DNA from: a virus
Taxonomy: Duplodnaviria > Caudoviricetes
Length of the DNA stretch: 56,903 nt
Strand: one strand, 5' to 3'
Virus record (IMG/VR): IMGVR_UViG_3300022540_000584
Span: 1-56,903 of that record
Positions 33,771 to 54,255 of the stretch are shown one piece after another. How positions within the stretch are numbered: position 1 is the first letter of the stretch; every line of letters starts with the position of its first letter. Made by a program: the position numbers and the translations under genes. The notes under the pieces are model-generated. The model saw only the letters and a program-made list of their open reading frames with translations, searched no databases and had not been told where the DNA came from.

Positions 33771-33838
33771 TTGTTCTTTGCAGGAACTTGTGGTATAATA
33801 GTACCATCTCATTATAACGGGAAAAGTCAAAATGTCAA
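33771..33838. promoter_or_regulatory. Opposed sigma70 promoters at LAGLIDADG 5' end
   Basis: Plus TTGTTC-N17-TATAAT (33771-33799); minus TTGACA-N16-TATAAT (33838-33811). Confidence 0.75.
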
Positions 33839-34815
33839 GAGTAGTAAAAAACCTCAAACACGCTAATGTTGAATTAACAGAGTTTCAATACCAAGTTTGT
33901 CTTGGAACCCTCTTGGGCGATTCATCCCTAAGCAGGCCCAAGAATGGCAGGACTTACCATCTAGCATGTTACCATACTGAGCGTCAATCTGACTGGCTCA
34001 AAATCAAGTGGGATTGGCTGCAACCTTTTAGCAGGCCAATCCAAGTGTGCGAATATCTTGATAAGCGCAACGGCAAGACCTATCGAGGAAGCCGCTTTCA
34101 TACGATCTCCGCTCCTTGTTTCAATGAATTGCATCGGCTGATCTATCCTGATATGAAACGAATCACACATGAACTAATGCAGCAGTTTGTGCATCCTGTG
34201 GCGCTAGCCTGTCTTATTTGTGATGACGGCACTTGGGACAAGGCAGGTATAAGCATTGCAAGTAAACAATTTACCATAGGGGGAAATGAAGTCTTGGCTA
34301 CTACCCTTAGTAATAATTTTGACATTCATGTTACTATGATGGCTAATCAAAAGTATCCATTTGTCAGGATTACAGCCCGATCTGTTGAGAGAACATTCAA
34401 TCTGTGCTCAAAGTACATTCCTGATACAATGTTATATAAGTTTGGTGGAGGCAATTACAAATCTTGTCTAGTTGGAAAGATCACCCAAATATGCCCTACC
34501 TGTGGGAAGCCTTTCCAAGTCTATGCCTCACTCGGCCAAATCTATTGCTCACGTCCTTGTGCACAGATCGGAAGACCCAAAGGATATGAAACAAGAACTG
34601 AAACGGATACCTGCCCTGTATGTGGCAAGACCTTTCTGCGTTATACCAAGCGCCAGCGAACTTGCCCTGATTGCTTTAGAAAGCCATCGCCTGATGAAGT
34701 CTGCCAAATTTGCGGTAAACCTGTTAAGGCCCATGGGCGCAAGCATTGCTCTAAGCGTTGTGGTACTATCGCTGGTCATCTTACCCGTGGGCATAAAGTC
34801 ACACTTCCTATCTAG
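33832..34815 (+). CDS. LAGLIDADG homing endonuclease with C-terminal zinc-finger repeats
   Basis: LGTLLGDSSL and LACLICDDG motifs; repeated CPxCGK. Confidence 0.9.
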   Translation: MSRVVKNLKHANVELTEFQYQVCLGTLLGDSSLSRPKNGRTYHLACYHTERQSDWLKIKWDWLQPFSRPIQVCEYLDKRNGKTYRGSRFHTISAPCFNELHRLIYPDMKRITHELMQQFVHPVALACLICDDGTWDKAGISIASKQFTIGGNEVLATTLSNNFDIHVTMMANQKYPFVRITARSVERTFNLCSKYIPDTMLYKFGGGNYKSCLVGKITQICPTCGKPFQVYASLGQIYCSRPCAQIGRPKGYETRTETDTCPVCGKTFLRYTKRQRTCPDCFRKPSPDEVCQICGKPVKAHGRKHCSKRCGTIAGHLTRGHKVTLPI

Positions 34816-37499: not shown

Positions 37500-38125
37500 C
37501 TTGCTCCCTTCTCAAATCGTGCCTGGCGGGCGGCGGTATAGGCTTTTCTTAAATCTTTTGAGCGCCCATTCTTTTTAGTCATTGGCGCTAGAATATCTAT
37601 GCCGTGCTCATCATCAAAAAAGAAGGTAAGGATAGGCGTTTCTCCTTTGCGTGCTGGCTCTAATGCTGGGAACGGCCAAATAACAAAACTGCCGTCTTCT
37701 CTCCTTTGTTGCCATATCCACGGGCGCGGGTCAAGAGATACTTGACCTATAGGCTCTCCGTTTGTTTTATTGACAAGGGGCAAGAATGCACGAGCAAAAG
37801 AGCCCGATTCTAATGTCCAATTTGGAAGATGGTATATCGGTATTTCTACTGAGCCACAAAAGGTAAATAGCGGCTTTTCTGTTCCTAATGCCAAGTACTT
37901 TGCCCATTCCTCTTGTAGTAAATTCTTACGCCCTTTGATTTCAATCCAACACTTTTGCTCTGGTAGCCAGAAGTCAGGTAGATACCAGCCTGCTTCCCCC
38001 AGGTCAAACCCTTCTGGCTCATATTGGTATTCAATCCCCAGGGTATCAAAGAACACCGCCCACCTGGCCTCGAGGCGGCTGCGGAACCGGTAGCCATTGT
38101 AGACTGTCTCAATTGCTTTGATCAC
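37496..38125 (-). CDS. PD-(D/E)XK nuclease-like protein
   Basis: FRSRLEARWAVFFD...YEPEG...YLPDF...IEIKG. Confidence 0.85.
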   Translation of the reverse strand: MIKAIETVYNGYRFRSRLEARWAVFFDTLGIEYQYEPEGFDLGEAGWYLPDFWLPEQKCWIEIKGRKNLLQEEWAKYLALGTEKPLFTFCGSVEIPIYHLPNWTLESGSFARAFLPLVNKTNGEPIGQVSLDPRPWIWQQRREDGSFVIWPFPALEPARKGETPILTFFFDDEHGIDILAPMTKKNGRSKDLRKAYTAARQARFEKGAR

Positions 38126-39066
38126 TGCGCTCTCCTTGCCAACCTCAAAAAGTTCTCTATGTCAAAAGACGACGCCCCGTATCTCACGATGGCGTCGTCT
38201 ATCTTAACAGGCATCTCTACTACCTGCCCGCGCCGCCCAAACAGCGCTGCCAGCCTGTAGGCCGATTGCGTAGCGTCCGGGTCTAACACTATGTACACCT
38301 GGCCGATGTGGGTAAACCAATCCAGCCACTCACGCTTGAAAGACTTCTTGCCCGTTATGCCGACGTTTGGGAAGCCAGATTGAGACACTACCAATGACTT
38401 TTTCTCTCCCTCGACTATGAGGATGCGCTTGTCGGCCTGGTCGAGCAGATCAACGTTGAACAGTGATAACCCCAGTCCGGCCCGGTGCGGGCGATACTTG
38501 CCCGTGCCGTTCGGCGCAATGAGGCGGTGGCGAATGTTCTCTAGTTTGCCACGGTTGATGATGGGGATAGTGTACGAGGGACTTTCGCGGTAGATGGGGC
38601 AACTGGTGCAATATCCGAGCATGTAGTGGTCAATTGTCTCTGTGGTCATTCCCTCTATCCACCAGTATTCGAATGCCCGCTCATCAAGCGCCTCATGATA
38701 GGTGAAATGGTCTTTGCACTTGTGCATCTGTTCTAGCGCCGTGAGGCGGCGCTCCATTTCTGCCTGTTGCCGCGCTTGCCGTCGCTGCTCGGCCTCAATA
38801 CGGAATATGCGTTTTTGTTCTGGCGTGAGGGGGTCTTGTTTCTCCAGTGTGTCGAGGAAGCCCTGTGCGGCGCACTGCCGACACCAATAACGCGGGGAAT
38901 TATCGAGGAAGATTCGGAATCTATTTGACTTCTCACCTTTGCCAGAATCGCCGCAGAATGGACATCCATTTAGGCTGTAGTACTCGTCTCGACTTGCGCG
39001 CTTGAGGCTTATGCCCCAGTGTCGTTCGGCTAGTCCTACGGGGTCAATAACTGTGTGCATCTGCAT
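38122..39066 (-). CDS. DNA primase (zinc-binding plus Toprim)
   Basis: CPFCG...YWCRQC; IVEGEKK; LDPD; GGAGG RBS before 39066. Confidence 0.9.
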   Translation of the reverse strand: MQMHTVIDPVGLAERHWGISLKRASRDEYYSLNGCPFCGDSGKGEKSNRFRIFLDNSPRYWCRQCAAQGFLDTLEKQDPLTPEQKRIFRIEAEQRRQARQQAEMERRLTALEQMHKCKDHFTYHEALDERAFEYWWIEGMTTETIDHYMLGYCTSCPIYRESPSYTIPIINRGKLENIRHRLIAPNGTGKYRPHRAGLGLSLFNVDLLDQADKRILIVEGEKKSLVVSQSGFPNVGITGKKSFKREWLDWFTHIGQVYIVLDPDATQSAYRLAALFGRRGQVVEMPVKIDDAIVRYGASSFDIENFLRLARRAQ

Positions 39067-39074
39067 TATACCTC

Positions 39075-39260
39075 CAAAGCAAAAGACCACCGCTTTGTGT
39101 GAGCCGGTTCCCAGGTCGGCCAGGCGAGCAGATGCGGACACCATGCACGACACTCCGACCCACACAAAGTTGTGGTCTTGCATCTGCTCGTTATTGCGCC
39201 TTGGGACAGACGACTGTTTGTTAATCATCTATATTATATACCTTTTGCAGAATTTGTCAA
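39075..39260 (-). promoter_or_regulatory. Promoter and structured leader of replication operon
   Basis: TTGACA-N16-TATAAT (39260-39233) followed by two interleaved inverted repeats. Confidence 0.75.
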
Positions 39261-39263
39261 ATC

Positions 39264-39680
39264 CTATCTCTTCACCAACGGCAAAAATAGATAACCAAGA
39301 ACAGCCCGATAGTCCTGGCTCCAATATATCACGACGGCTTCCGGTTGGCAAGTCCAGTTGATGCAGGCTTCCATTCCCGGCTCCGGGTCCTCATCATAGA
39401 AGTTGGACCATGGCAGGGCGTAGAGGCCAGGCGGGAACCTCTCGCGGACGACCCAATTCTGCTCATGTCCGTTCCAGGGGCAGCAGGAAGCGCGAGCGTA
39501 ATTGATGTCTACTGAATATGAAGTGGCCTGGGAAGTCGACCACAACTCCAGGGTTAATTCATCGGGCGTCGCCCGCCTGATCGCTATGCCGCACCAGTGA
39601 TAGGCCGGTCTGGCGCTGACGGTGACGACGCTCGACAGAAGCAAGATGACGGCAACCGTTGGTTTAACATGAGACTTCAT
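39264..39680 (-). CDS. Secreted protein with C-terminal FLPLVKR motif
   Basis: Signal peptide, ends YLFLPLVKR. Confidence 0.7.
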   Translation of the reverse strand: MKSHVKPTVAVILLLSSVVTVSARPAYHWCGIAIRRATPDELTLELWSTSQATSYSVDINYARASCCPWNGHEQNWVVRERFPPGLYALPWSNFYDEDPEPGMEACINWTCQPEAVVIYWSQDYRAVLGYLFLPLVKR

Positions 39681-39698
39681 TATCCCTCTCCCGATTTA

Positions 39699-41734
39699 TC
39701 AAGGCGTCGCCTCTTTGCACTCCGGGCAACAGCCCAACACGACGCCGTCGTCATCGGCCTCGACGTCCCTGGCCCTGCCCGGGACGTCCCACCCCTCGCG
39801 CGTCAAGGCGTCAAAGAATTCTTGCTGGTAGTCGTAGGTGTCCAGCCCGTGGTCAAAAACGGACATGCTTTTGCCGCATTCCAGACACACAATGCAAACG
39901 ATAGGCCACAGGCTCATCAAGGCCCCGCCATCATCAACTCAATTATCACCGCGTTCTGCTGCGCGACAGCCTGCAGCAAGAGTATCTGGTACTCAGCGGC
40001 AATCAACTGTTGCTCGGCGATGCGCTCAATGCCAGGGGCGTAAGCGTCAGTGTGGTAACTGTCGGCGGCGCCGGCGACTATCCACTGTTGCCGGTCGAGC
40101 AACGCCTGTACCTGCCCCGCGTGCTCCTCGATGCGTGCCGCTTGCGCCCGGCGGTCTTGCAGCACTGACGTGGCGAAATAGACGTTGTTGACTAGTAAGG
40201 CCATCAGGGTGATGAGTAAATACGCGAAATCGCCTTTGCCTTTCATTGTCCTTTCCTCCTGTCGTTCTATGGTTGATTTGTCAACTTGCCCATTCTCAAT
40301 ACTTTCAGCAAATGTCGCCTGCGCCTGGCTTTCGTCTTGTCCCGCTCGTATACCCCCGGCCCGACAATTACAGTTGCCAGCCACGGCGTTGCGTTGCGTG
40401 AGATATAGAAATACCACGGCCATTTCCGGCCATAGAATTTAATCGTGGGATGAAAACAGAGCCACTCCCGCCGCGTCCTGATATTCAATGCGATGTGCAT
40501 GGCATTGAATCCGTATATGATAACTGGCCCGACTCGAATATATCCCCCGAGATGAGATTCGAGCCAATTCTCAACATGCCTTCGTGTTTTGCCAATATCA
40601 AACTGTTCTTGTGTTGCCGTTCCCATGTGATATTCCCCTTCTCGCTGCCCGCCTCAATGCGTCAAAGACGGGCGGTAGGTCCCCATCATTAAGCTGCACT
40701 TGCTAAAACTTCGCGTACCTCATTTAGTGTCATCTGTCCTTTCCTCCTTGATTTATCACTTCACTACATCCTGCGATCAATTCATCCAGCATCTTTCCCA
40801 GCGCCGCTCGGTATTCCCGTTCTTTCGCCGCCGCCGCGCGCCTGGCCTCGATCGCCACTTGCCACAGGCGCTCGGCTTCTATGCGCAGAGCCTTGACTGT
40901 TTGTCGATCTGCCATGCCTCTCCTTTATTCGGTCAGCATCCTAAACAGCATCCAGAGCCAGAACGCCAACTCCAGCGCCACCAGCACCCAGACGGCGACA
41001 AGTAGTATCTCTCTCAGGATGCGCAATGGCCTCATTTGTCAAATCTCTCTGCCGCCCGCTCTGCCTACCTGCGCCTGGGCATCAACGCCAGCGCCATCGC
41101 CAGCGGAGACCAAAGCGGCGACGTGATGAACAGCAGCCCGAGGCCCACCTCGAGCGCGCTGTATCCGTCGAGTTCTGCCGGCCTGTCGCCCGCCGCCGAG
41201 GATAGCACTATCAGCGTCACCAGAATTACTATAGCAATCATTGCGATCACTCGCTTAGTGTTCATGGTTCCCTCTCCTTGCCGCCCGCCACCGGTGCGCT
41301 GGAGACGGGCGGCGGTTACTATGTCTGCTCGTATTTCACTCCAATACAATGAATGTATAGCGGAATAATGCCGAAAAGGAACCATCCGCGCCATTGCGCA
41401 ACTGTGTATTTCAGCATTGGGAATGGCATATGTTCATGTTTCTTTGGTTGTCTTCGCTTCCTTCTGGTTGTCCAGTATCTATGGATGATCATTTTGCCTC
41501 CTCTTGCTCCTCGTCTCTCACCCGCTCAGCCTCGGCCGCCAGCCGCTCGGCATGCTTTTGCTCTCCGGCGCGCATCGCGTCCACGAGTTTCTGCCATATC
41601 CTTTGTTCCCTGGCAATTCGTTTCTCCTCTTCGCTCATTACGCTTGCTCCTTATCTAGTTGCGGCTCCAGCAGTTCCCAGATCCCGCTCCGCGCCAGGTA
41701 GAAGCGCATCCGCCTCAGCGCCTTAACCTCGACC
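39699..41734 (-). other. Cluster of small early ORFs (Zn-ribbon 39699..39920, TM proteins, 40267..40626, 40730..40915, 41065..41265)
   Basis: Tightly coupled minus-strand ORFs with AGGAG RBSs; no family recognised. Confidence 0.6.
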
Positions 41735-42120
41735 TGATGCGCCCGCTGTCGGTTGACGCCGAAGACGGTGCCGGTTTCCCGCAATGTATAGCGTGGCCCG
41801 TTTAGCCCGAATCGGCGCGTGATGACTTGTGCACCGCGCTCGTCCAGCGCGGCGACCGCTTCCACCAACAGCACTTTGACCTCAGTAGTGAGCACTAAGC
41901 GCTCACTACCGAACAAGCCGCGCAGCAGGGACGTCCACGCCTCTGTCTGCCAGTTCGGTAGCGCCGGTGGCCGGTAGGGTTCCTGCCCCCCAATTGCGCG
42001 GTGCAATAGCAGGCGCGCCGCCTCTGAGCGGTTGAGGCCATACTCGGCGGCCCAGGCATTTAGCGCCTCCAGCAGTTTGGTGGGCAGGCAGAAGTTCAGG
42101 CGGTCATCCATCGTCATCAT
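41638..42120 (-). CDS. Ribbon-helix-helix plus sigma70 region 4 fusion
   Basis: RLNFCLP..LLEALNAWA..GLNRSEAARLLL (RHH); LDERGAQVITRRFGL..TLRETG..FGVNRQRAHQVEVKALRRMR (sigma4). Confidence 0.85.
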   Translation of the reverse strand: MMTMDDRLNFCLPTKLLEALNAWAAEYGLNRSEAARLLLHRAIGGQEPYRPPALPNWQTEAWTSLLRGLFGSERLVLTTEVKVLLVEAVAALDERGAQVITRRFGLNGPRYTLRETGTVFGVNRQRAHQVEVKALRRMRFYLARSGIWELLEPQLDKEQA

Positions 42121-42225
42121 TCGCGCTCCTCTCTGTCTAGCGCTGCGACGACACATATTCCCCAGGCAATGCCCGTCAGACAGGCGAAGATGAAGACGAT
42201 GACGAGGCCGGGGCAGCATAGTTGC

Positions 42226-54191: not shown

Positions 54192-54255
54192 AGTATATAC
54201 CCGTTTAGGTAATTTGTCAAGCAGACTTGACAAAGCCTATCAAATTTGGTACAAT
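54192..54255. promoter_or_regulatory. Back-to-back divergent promoters separating the two genome arms
   Basis: Minus TTGACA-N17-TATACT (54220-54192); plus TTGACA-N17-TACAAT (54227-54255). Confidence 0.85.

Follow-up and report, generated by a model that had tools for sequence, protein, structure and literature searches.

The primase gene of the phage studied here is preceded by a leader in which two long stems interleave, and this locus raises the question of whether the leader works as an RNA and whether its stems could switch the replication genes behind it. The window, which is the whole stretch of 56,903 nucleotides that we analysed, is a linear IMG/VR virus record, a 56.9-kb partial genome that is 69% complete. 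The operon behind the leader encodes a primase, an endonuclease-like protein, a DnaD/O-like protein and a DnaB-like helicase on the minus strand, and these genes bear out the first-pass annotation of the region as the leader of a primase/replication operon. A blastn search of a phage GenBank collection returned three records, none of which covers more than 8% of the query; they match the 3′ end of the primase gene and not the leader. Viral contigs searched with the single primase gave no match. In the genome collection, relatives of the primase are confined to three contigs in Chloroflexota/Anaerolineae MAGs. The hosts are probably Chloroflexota and not enterobacteria, and the phages are probably uncultured ones from sediments. 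No integrase or repressor family was found among the 35 ORFs scanned in this 69% complete record. The phage also encodes a protein with a sigma-70 region 4 domain (PF04545, 9e-11; 41638-42219, minus strand), which may redirect or modify the host RNA polymerase and may bear on read-through of the leader cassette.

Interleaved stems between promoter and primase

All elements of the leader lie on the minus strand (Table 1). The leader extends for about 150 nt, from approximately 39226 to the ribosome-binding site (RBS). The sigma-70-type promoter ahead of it, which was absent from the first-pass annotation and was found in this analysis, matches the consensus perfectly, and its position places the predicted transcript start at about 39227-39225. 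No plus-strand promoter-like site was found within 38000-40500.

Table 1. Features of the primase leader and of the leader of the Dam-like methyltransferase gene (window coordinates)
Feature	Position	Strand	Basis
Sigma-70-type promoter, TTGACA (39260-39255), 16-nt spacer, TATAAT (39238-39233)	39233-39260	-	12/12 consensus matches
a1 (UCCCAAGG), upstream partner of a′	39199-39206	-	5 contiguous pairs + 2 past a bulged A; weak alone
b1 (CGAGCAGAUGC), helix A 5′ strand; abuts stem B directly (linker 0)	39180-39190	-	11/11 repeat
Stem B 5′ arm	39155-39179	-	Repeat search, MFE fold, family covariation
Hairpin B apical region, 47 nt; b′ (39135-39125) at tip, a′ (39115-39109)	39108-39154	-
Stem B 3′ arm	39083-39107	-	Repeat search, family covariation
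U run UUUUGCUUU behind stem B, intrinsic-terminator-like tail	39076-39084	-	Read from sequence
GGAGG RBS (39075-39071) and primase ATG (39066-39064)	39064-39075	-	Homologue N-termini start here
Possible third site b2 (GCAGAUGC), overlapping primase start codon by one base	39057-39064	-	Complement of b′ 39135-39128; + 4 bp after 2-nt bulge
DNA primase gene, first in operon	38122-39066	-	phrog_47 profile, 1.3e-31; 231 homologues
Dam-like leader promoter, TTGACA-17-TATACT	54192-54220	-	11/12
Dam-like leader A1 / A2	54185-54175 / 54116-54106	-	11/11
Dam-like leader B1 / B2	54139-54130 / 54087-54078	-	10/10

Two interleaved stems had been proposed in this leader, and the repeat search, folding and shuffles confirm both of them together with their coordinates. 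Stem B (25 nt, 84% complementary) and the b1-b′ core of stem A, or helix A (11 nt, 100% complementary), follow the strand order A1-B1-A2-B2. The fold of the 191-nt stretch has an energy of −75.2 kcal/mol (z = −4.15), which none of 200 dinucleotide shuffles equalled, and the 11-nt complement to the 5′ leader was found in none of 1000 shuffles of the hairpin tip. The proposed extension of stem A holds in part: 39206-39199 does pair with 39115-39109, but only as UCCCA with UGGGA plus GG with CC, with one bulged A. Regarding the claim that the two folds are mutually exclusive, this is not borne out: helix A and stem B have no nucleotide in common, and exclusion would thus be steric only. In the window, A and B each measure about 25-27 nt and lie end to end with linkers of 0-1 nt.

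The U-rich tract and the GGAGG RBS described behind stem B are both present. With its G+C-rich duplex and the U run next to it on the transcribed strand, stem B has the layout of an intrinsic terminator; a simple terminator scanner (loop of 3-8 nt) misses it because its 'loop' is 47 nt. The earlier suggestion of an attenuator fits this arrangement, with stem B and the U run being terminator-like and helix A predicted to form first.

Several other sites of the phage concern promoters and leaders. An imperfect inverted repeat surrounds the leader promoter (39218-39235 and 39284-39301, 18 nt, 72%; TTATCTAT ... ATAGATGATTAA) and may be an operator pair. A second sigma-70 promoter with 12/12 consensus matches, on the minus strand (33838-33811), shares sequence with the beginning of a LAGLIDADG/HNH homing-endonuclease gene of the plus strand (33832-34815); a short leader and a small ORF lie behind this promoter, without interleaved structure. 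A second interleaved leader, with the same design and unrelated sequence, is found at 54220-54059 on the minus strand, where a U run, GGAGG and the start codon (ATG, 54059) of a Dam-like methyltransferase come after B2. Two viral contigs (L121 and L122) conserve this leader, B having one compensatory change; neither keeps the apparent downstream targets of 9 and 8 nt (1/3000 shuffles). The promoter of this leader stands back to back with a divergent strong promoter on the plus strand (54227-54255; both 11/12), and this stretch (54192-54255) looks like a switch region; no repressor was identified in the phage.

A leader family with covarying stems

The leader is nearly invariant among close relatives. 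We compared contigs from four sequencing runs with the window at a likeness of at least 80%, and 38 of the 40 differences listed fall within 38845-39054, the 5′ coding part of the primase gene. No listed difference falls within 39055-39182, and the other two are in b1 (39183 and 39189; two runs), where one yields a G·U pair and the other an A·C mismatch; b′ is unchanged among the differences listed, which include no informative variant for the window's own helix A. One contig is identical across 39075-39188, and another has at most one of its six differences within 39053-39178. In a relative with an 85%-identical primase, 26 of 26 residues are the same across the leader reading. Finally, a low-depth contig matches 39075-39104 and then switches to unrelated sequence opening with an RBS and an ATG, which is a weak hint that the cassette may be portable.

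When the leader was searched by blastn against 112 loci, it matched nothing except itself. When the 200 nt ahead of primase were folded for the window and for 24 other loci, several of these 25 regions formed a long hairpin followed by a U run just ahead of the RBS (z ≤ −3 in 8 of 25). A covariance model from the window's stem B alone (R1) matched L059, L114 and L115. The model built from these three loci, with the window excluded (R2), recovers the window at 58.8 bits (E = 1.3e-12, a rough value, as for all our home-made models) and adds L071, a second copy in L059, L045, L075, L049, L035, L005 and L036. Model R3 adds L034, L037 and L003, gives the window 70.3 bits and has 13 sense-strand matches with E ≤ 1e-3. 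Altogether, the stem B models recover about 15 leaders adjoining related primase genes, each of which has its strong promoter, long hairpin and U run; the family alignment was grown iteratively from stem B, and a T-rich tail partly guided the choice of the first loci.

The common layout consists of a strong promoter, a 5′ part of 40-90 nt, the basal stem, the U run, the RBS and the gene. The basal stem has 16-30 bp around 23-50 nt (about 35 nt in 7 of 10 leaders). Strong promoters, often with an extended −10, precede all 11 related leaders examined and likewise six later matches. The six newly found places all have the promoter, stem, U-rich tail (weaker in L005) and RBS when read by eye, and in five of them a stretch of at least 7 nt in the transcribed 5′ leader is complementary to the tip, with 11 nt in L045, 11 nt in L035 and 12 nt in L005. 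L075 has no such complement inside the predicted transcript; its sole 7-nt match lies upstream of the predicted promoter. Some motifs are partly conserved, namely CGC-U6 / A4GG-GCG-U6 with U·G pairs in the basal stem and an a1 resembling GUGGCWG. Stem B of L115 is recognisably like that of the window, with the same G·U pair, and its inner part carries compensatory changes.

The cassettes are not confined to primase genes. Copies lie downstream of primase and before another gene in L059 (1680-1791), L071 (577-685), L045 (962-1075) and L075 (580-698); L059 therefore has two cassettes, whose b segments differ. The product behind the cassette starts MTMG(I/V)YGL... in L071 and L045 and is GIY-YIG-like by eye, and small ORFs follow the cassettes in L066 and L115. 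Since the same cassette stands ahead of other genes, it is not specific to replication control. Model R1 stays below threshold in the genome containing L115, and R3 matches two of 151 genomes of the class to which that genome belongs, one of them being that genome itself. A pattern search for stem B in viral contigs gave four loci, of which one is the phage of L115 and three are chance matches. L037 also has a match to the type-P1 twister ribozyme some 200 nt ahead of its leader (400-470), but at 37 bits (E = 1e-4) this falls short of the gathering score of 67.2. The leader family has no Rfam entry and by these sequence searches is previously uncatalogued, and the literature searched contains no description of such a leader before primase genes or in Chloroflexota phages.

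Both stems are conserved by pairing. In a seven-sequence alignment of stem B that was fitted to the structure, 98.7% of cells pair and 20 of 23 pairs have changed on both sides; none of 500 shuffles matches this, and slid alignments pair at 42-55%. MAFFT alignments of the leaders (A3, A4 and A7) placed the stems out of register and were excluded from the counts. For helix A, we took 15 leaders defined by stem B only and determined the longest perfect complement that the tip has in the 100 nt upstream; these counts replaced RNAduplex energy matrices, which long loops made noisy. The complement is 7-12 nt long in all 15 leaders (mean 9.0), compared with means of 5.76 for non-cognate pairs and 5.60 for each leader's own downstream 100 nt. 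The upstream match exceeds the downstream match in 14 of the 15, with one tie. Non-cognate matches of at least 7 nt occur in 45 of 210 pairs, partly via the shared GUGGCWG-like a1 motif. In an earlier hand-picked set of 10 the lengths are 11, 9, 10, 10, 8, 7, 8, 11, 14 and 5 nt against a non-cognate mean of 5.26, and L066, whose longest match is 5 nt, is without helix A.

Closely related pairs of leaders show the same feature directly. L036 and L037 differ by one compensatory change in helix A and three in stem B and are 97.9% paired. L053 and L057, in which helix A is 20-21 bp long, differ by three consecutive compensatory changes in helix A and two in stem B and are 100% paired; all five one-sided changes in their stem B yield G·U pairs. 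The first-pass annotation had made its switch depend in part on covariation in homologues, and on inspection the interleaved stems are kept with covariation in the relatives. We are highly confident that the leader is a real, conserved structured RNA.

Comparison with known leader RNAs

To our knowledge, phage replication-gene leader RNAs are known in detail only from enterobacterial P1/P4-type elements. We compared the leader with these systems. Rfam 15 finds nothing at gathering score in the whole window (the C4 cut-off is 45 bits). At E ≤ 10, region 38900-39400 gives only noise (sR11, MIR169_2 and sR60) and no C4, c4-a1b1 or isrK, and the C4 model has no match at E ≤ 1 in 10 related loci. 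In the positive control, phage P4, the CI RNA scores 74.9 bits with C4 (RF01695), and the isrK-like model (RF01394) scores 60.8 bits. Our complement search also recovers the P4 triad, in which 8464-8456 matches 8651-8644 upstream (8 nt) and 8384-8376 downstream on the RBS. The likeness to P1 c4 and P4 CI RNA that had been drawn for this leader is apt as an analogy, but not as membership of the Rfam families C4, c4-a1b1 and isrK, for which the scan gave no match.

The c4 antisense RNA of P1 and P7 follows an a1 b1 / a′ b′ / a2 b2 scheme. Our leader shares the two-part (a, b) complementarity between the upstream leader and the structured RNA of the same transcript, and its specificity segments likewise change with compensation between related phages. 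In contrast, it has no Rfam match to this class (the c4-a1b1 motif is listed in PMC2864571), an a2b2-like site is suggested in the window only, and RNase P processing is not indicated here.

The P4 CI RNA, as described in PMC4825925, exerts antisense control over the leader of the primase (alpha) operon via premature transcription termination, and both RNA elements lie in the untranslated leader of a primase/replication operon. In both, a long basal stem carries an apical antisense segment (a 17-bp stem around two small hairpins in C4; a 25-bp stem around 47 nt in the window), and the leader itself contains, further upstream, a site complementary to that segment (seqA in P4; b1/a1 here). However, the antisense segment here sits within the terminator hairpin itself, and the C4 consensus ends in ...CCaCCcuu, a CCA-like tail, where our leader has the U run UUUUGCUUU. 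A seqC-like target on the RBS is no feature of the leader family, no isrK/SeqA-type RNA lies upstream, and the hosts are probably Chloroflexota.

Two further comparisons concern the decision between termination and read-through. In pT181, pIP501 and pAMbeta1, as described in PMC2879508, the leader of the replication gene either reads through or forms an intrinsic terminator and an RNA decides between the two, which resembles the arrangement here. In the pT181 type described there, the countertranscripts come from the opposite strand, whereas no opposite-strand promoter is seen here (38000-40500), and the pre-emptor shares bases with the terminator, whereas A and B are disjoint. According to PMC4825925, a single promoter in the Gifsy-1 prophage gives rise both to a terminated short transcript, IsrK, and to a read-through mRNA, the former acting in trans on the latter. 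Such a short/read-through pair with proposed trans action is similar to our leader; however, in that account IsrK activates translation of the read-through form, and it has no sequence or Rfam relation to our leader.

Proposed attenuation and alternative readings

For the nascent RNA up to the tip, at a stage that precedes the 3′ arm of stem B, the MFE fold contains all helix A pairs in 9 of 10 leaders. For the full leader, in a nested model that cannot separate exclusion from a pseudoknot, the B form is favoured by 7-27 kcal/mol in 7 of 10 leaders (14.4 in the window), and the A and B forms are about equal in energy in L034, L053 and L057. Helix A and the 3′ arm of stem B are separated by a linker of 0-2 nt in 7 of 10 leaders. 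The upstream segments pair in nested order in six leaders and in crossing order in four (L036, L037, L053 and L057).

We tentatively favour, at not quite an even chance, a transcription attenuator in which the early helix A modulates terminator B. Stem B and the U run would act as an intrinsic terminator a few bases before the RBS of the primase operon. Transcription reaches b1/a1 and b′/a′ earlier than the 3′ arm of stem B, so helix A is predicted to be the first to form, and it would interfere with, or at least modulate, closure of the terminator hairpin. The interplay of A and B would then set the share of polymerases that reach the primase, endonuclease, DnaD-like and DnaB-like genes. The regulatory input would most likely be RNA, namely terminated leaders, whose tip would be free once B forms. 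By pairing in trans with a1/b1 of a nascent leader, a terminated leader could keep helix A from forming in cis and favour termination, and this would amount to negative feedback of the P4 CI type. Such feedback would be the most economical input.

Some features fit the attenuator less well. The crossing order in the four leaders named above is not explained by a simple nested antiterminator, and with disjoint stems and linkers of 0-1 nt in the window a side-by-side coexistence is conceivable. L066 is without helix A, the 7-nt match of L075 lies outside the predicted transcript, and the A·C mismatch that b1 carries in two relatives is accompanied by an unchanged b′ among the differences listed.

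A second reading, which we consider rather improbable, is a static structured cassette. Here, A and B would coexist as a pseudoknotted terminator, an RNase III site or a stabiliser, and the cassette would yield a constitutive short RNA. Either a phage or host protein would switch read-through, or the duplex would just be a processing or stability element. The pR′-6S RNA-tR′ region of lambda with Q is the model for such protein-switched read-through. Consistent with this, the same promoter-leader-hairpin unit stands ahead of different genes (L071, L045, the second copy of L059, L066 and L115), and the Dam-like gene of the same phage has a differently sequenced and equally interleaved leader. 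The partly conserved basal-stem and a1 motifs, the helix lengths and short linkers of the window, which suit two side-by-side helices, and the phage-encoded sigma-like protein also fit. However, no candidate antiterminator was identified, and the helix A sequence varies freely while its pairing is kept, which argues for pairing and not for sequence recognition. The three leaders that are isoenergetic for A and B in the nested model also suggest competition, against a fixed structure.

Next, the hairpin could be a true c4/CI-type antisense RNA acting in trans, which is unlikely. It would be released, its tip would pair at the primase start, block translation and cause polarity, and b1/a1 would be an upstream decoy or target. 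In the window, b′ is indeed complementary to GCAGAUGC, and the repeat search gives a third pairing (39128-39140 with 39052-39064) that spans the primase start codon. A second 8-mer (39025-39018) matches 39154-39147 in the 5′ part of the tip, and two such 8-mers occur in 13 of 3000 shuffles. The layout also resembles the C4 consensus, with its 17-bp basal stem enclosing about 44 nt, and the complement search is able to recover the seqA/seqB/seqC triad of P4. On the other hand, the downstream complement of the other members is at background in the hand-picked set (cognate 5.9, non-cognate 5.78) and in the 15 leaders (cognate 5.60, non-cognate 5.54), and no locus among them falls below 89/1000 in the shuffles. 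Relatives at 80-84% identity begin MQAH, MTVT and LHTI, so b2 is not kept. A locus-wide search for other targets of the tip gave chance-level matches only. The C4 model has no match, a U run and not a CCA-like tail follows the basal stem, and the 56.9-kb partial genome yielded neither an integrase nor a repressor. In the window of this phage only, a c4-like downstream target is suggested as a possibility.

It is very improbable that the repeats act as DNA, whether as inverted sites for a protein, as an origin or as a cruciform beside the replication genes. The site does adjoin these genes, and operator or iteron pairs would likewise be expected to have copies co-varying between phages. However, in 11 of 12 cases the sense strand gives the more stable hairpin B, with 37 G·U pairs against 15, and the one-sided changes between L053 and L057 all give G·U. 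The U run is on the sense strand only, the placement between promoter and RBS is constant, and helix A reaches 20-21 bp in L053 and L057. The compensatory changes and sense-strand G·U pairs indicate, at the level of sequence, that the element works as RNA. As to the type of RNA, an HDV-like ribozyme topology was considered and rejected on the reasoning that helix A is too long for P1 and that the stretch from a′ to the 3′ arm of stem B leaves no space for P4; no Rfam ribozyme matched.

Lastly, it is hardly credible that the leader is coding, whether as a leaderless N-terminal extension of primase from the ATG at 39228, as the first-pass annotation had it, or as a leader ORF kept open as around P4 CI: the frame is indeed open for 54 codons (368 aa in all), one relative keeps it over the first 10 codons despite several base changes (match end 39206), and 5 of 10 leaders have one frame without internal stops, but the best 120 of 231 homologues are 286-340 aa long, bar one 201-aa partial, and five of the six closest start at or beside 39066/39060, the sixth (340 aa) having its called frame run into the leader. 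Homologues thus align from 39066/39060 and extensions are not conserved; in most of 24 related loci a stop in the same frame is found 10-80 nt ahead of the start, we estimate that about 1 in 10 frames would be open in this way by chance at this G+C, and a coding extension would not be expected to stay nearly invariant beside a coding region that has diverged. From the homologue lengths and starts and the short upstream frames, the 368-aa frame is best read as chance.

Returning to the attenuator, the leaders form a separate, covariation-supported family in which the antisense segment lies within the terminator hairpin and its conserved partner lies upstream and not on the RBS. The family is a compact, testable case of long-range pairing that would control an intrinsic terminator, and model R3 can be used to annotate such cassettes in viral metagenomes; the cassettes are also possible orthogonal RNA parts. 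In a more speculative extension, which we regard as doubtful, the cassette would be a self-addressed switch, whose terminator tip serves as an 'address' that recognises the nascent 5′ ends of the same leader and forces termination. Only if this trans reading holds would the cassette represent a new kind of biology. In that case, each operon (primase, endonuclease, methylase) would have an orthogonal, protein-free and dose-dependent shut-off, the phage would time gene blocks or limit them by copy number via RNA addresses, and the addresses would diverge by compensatory change, like immunity specificities.
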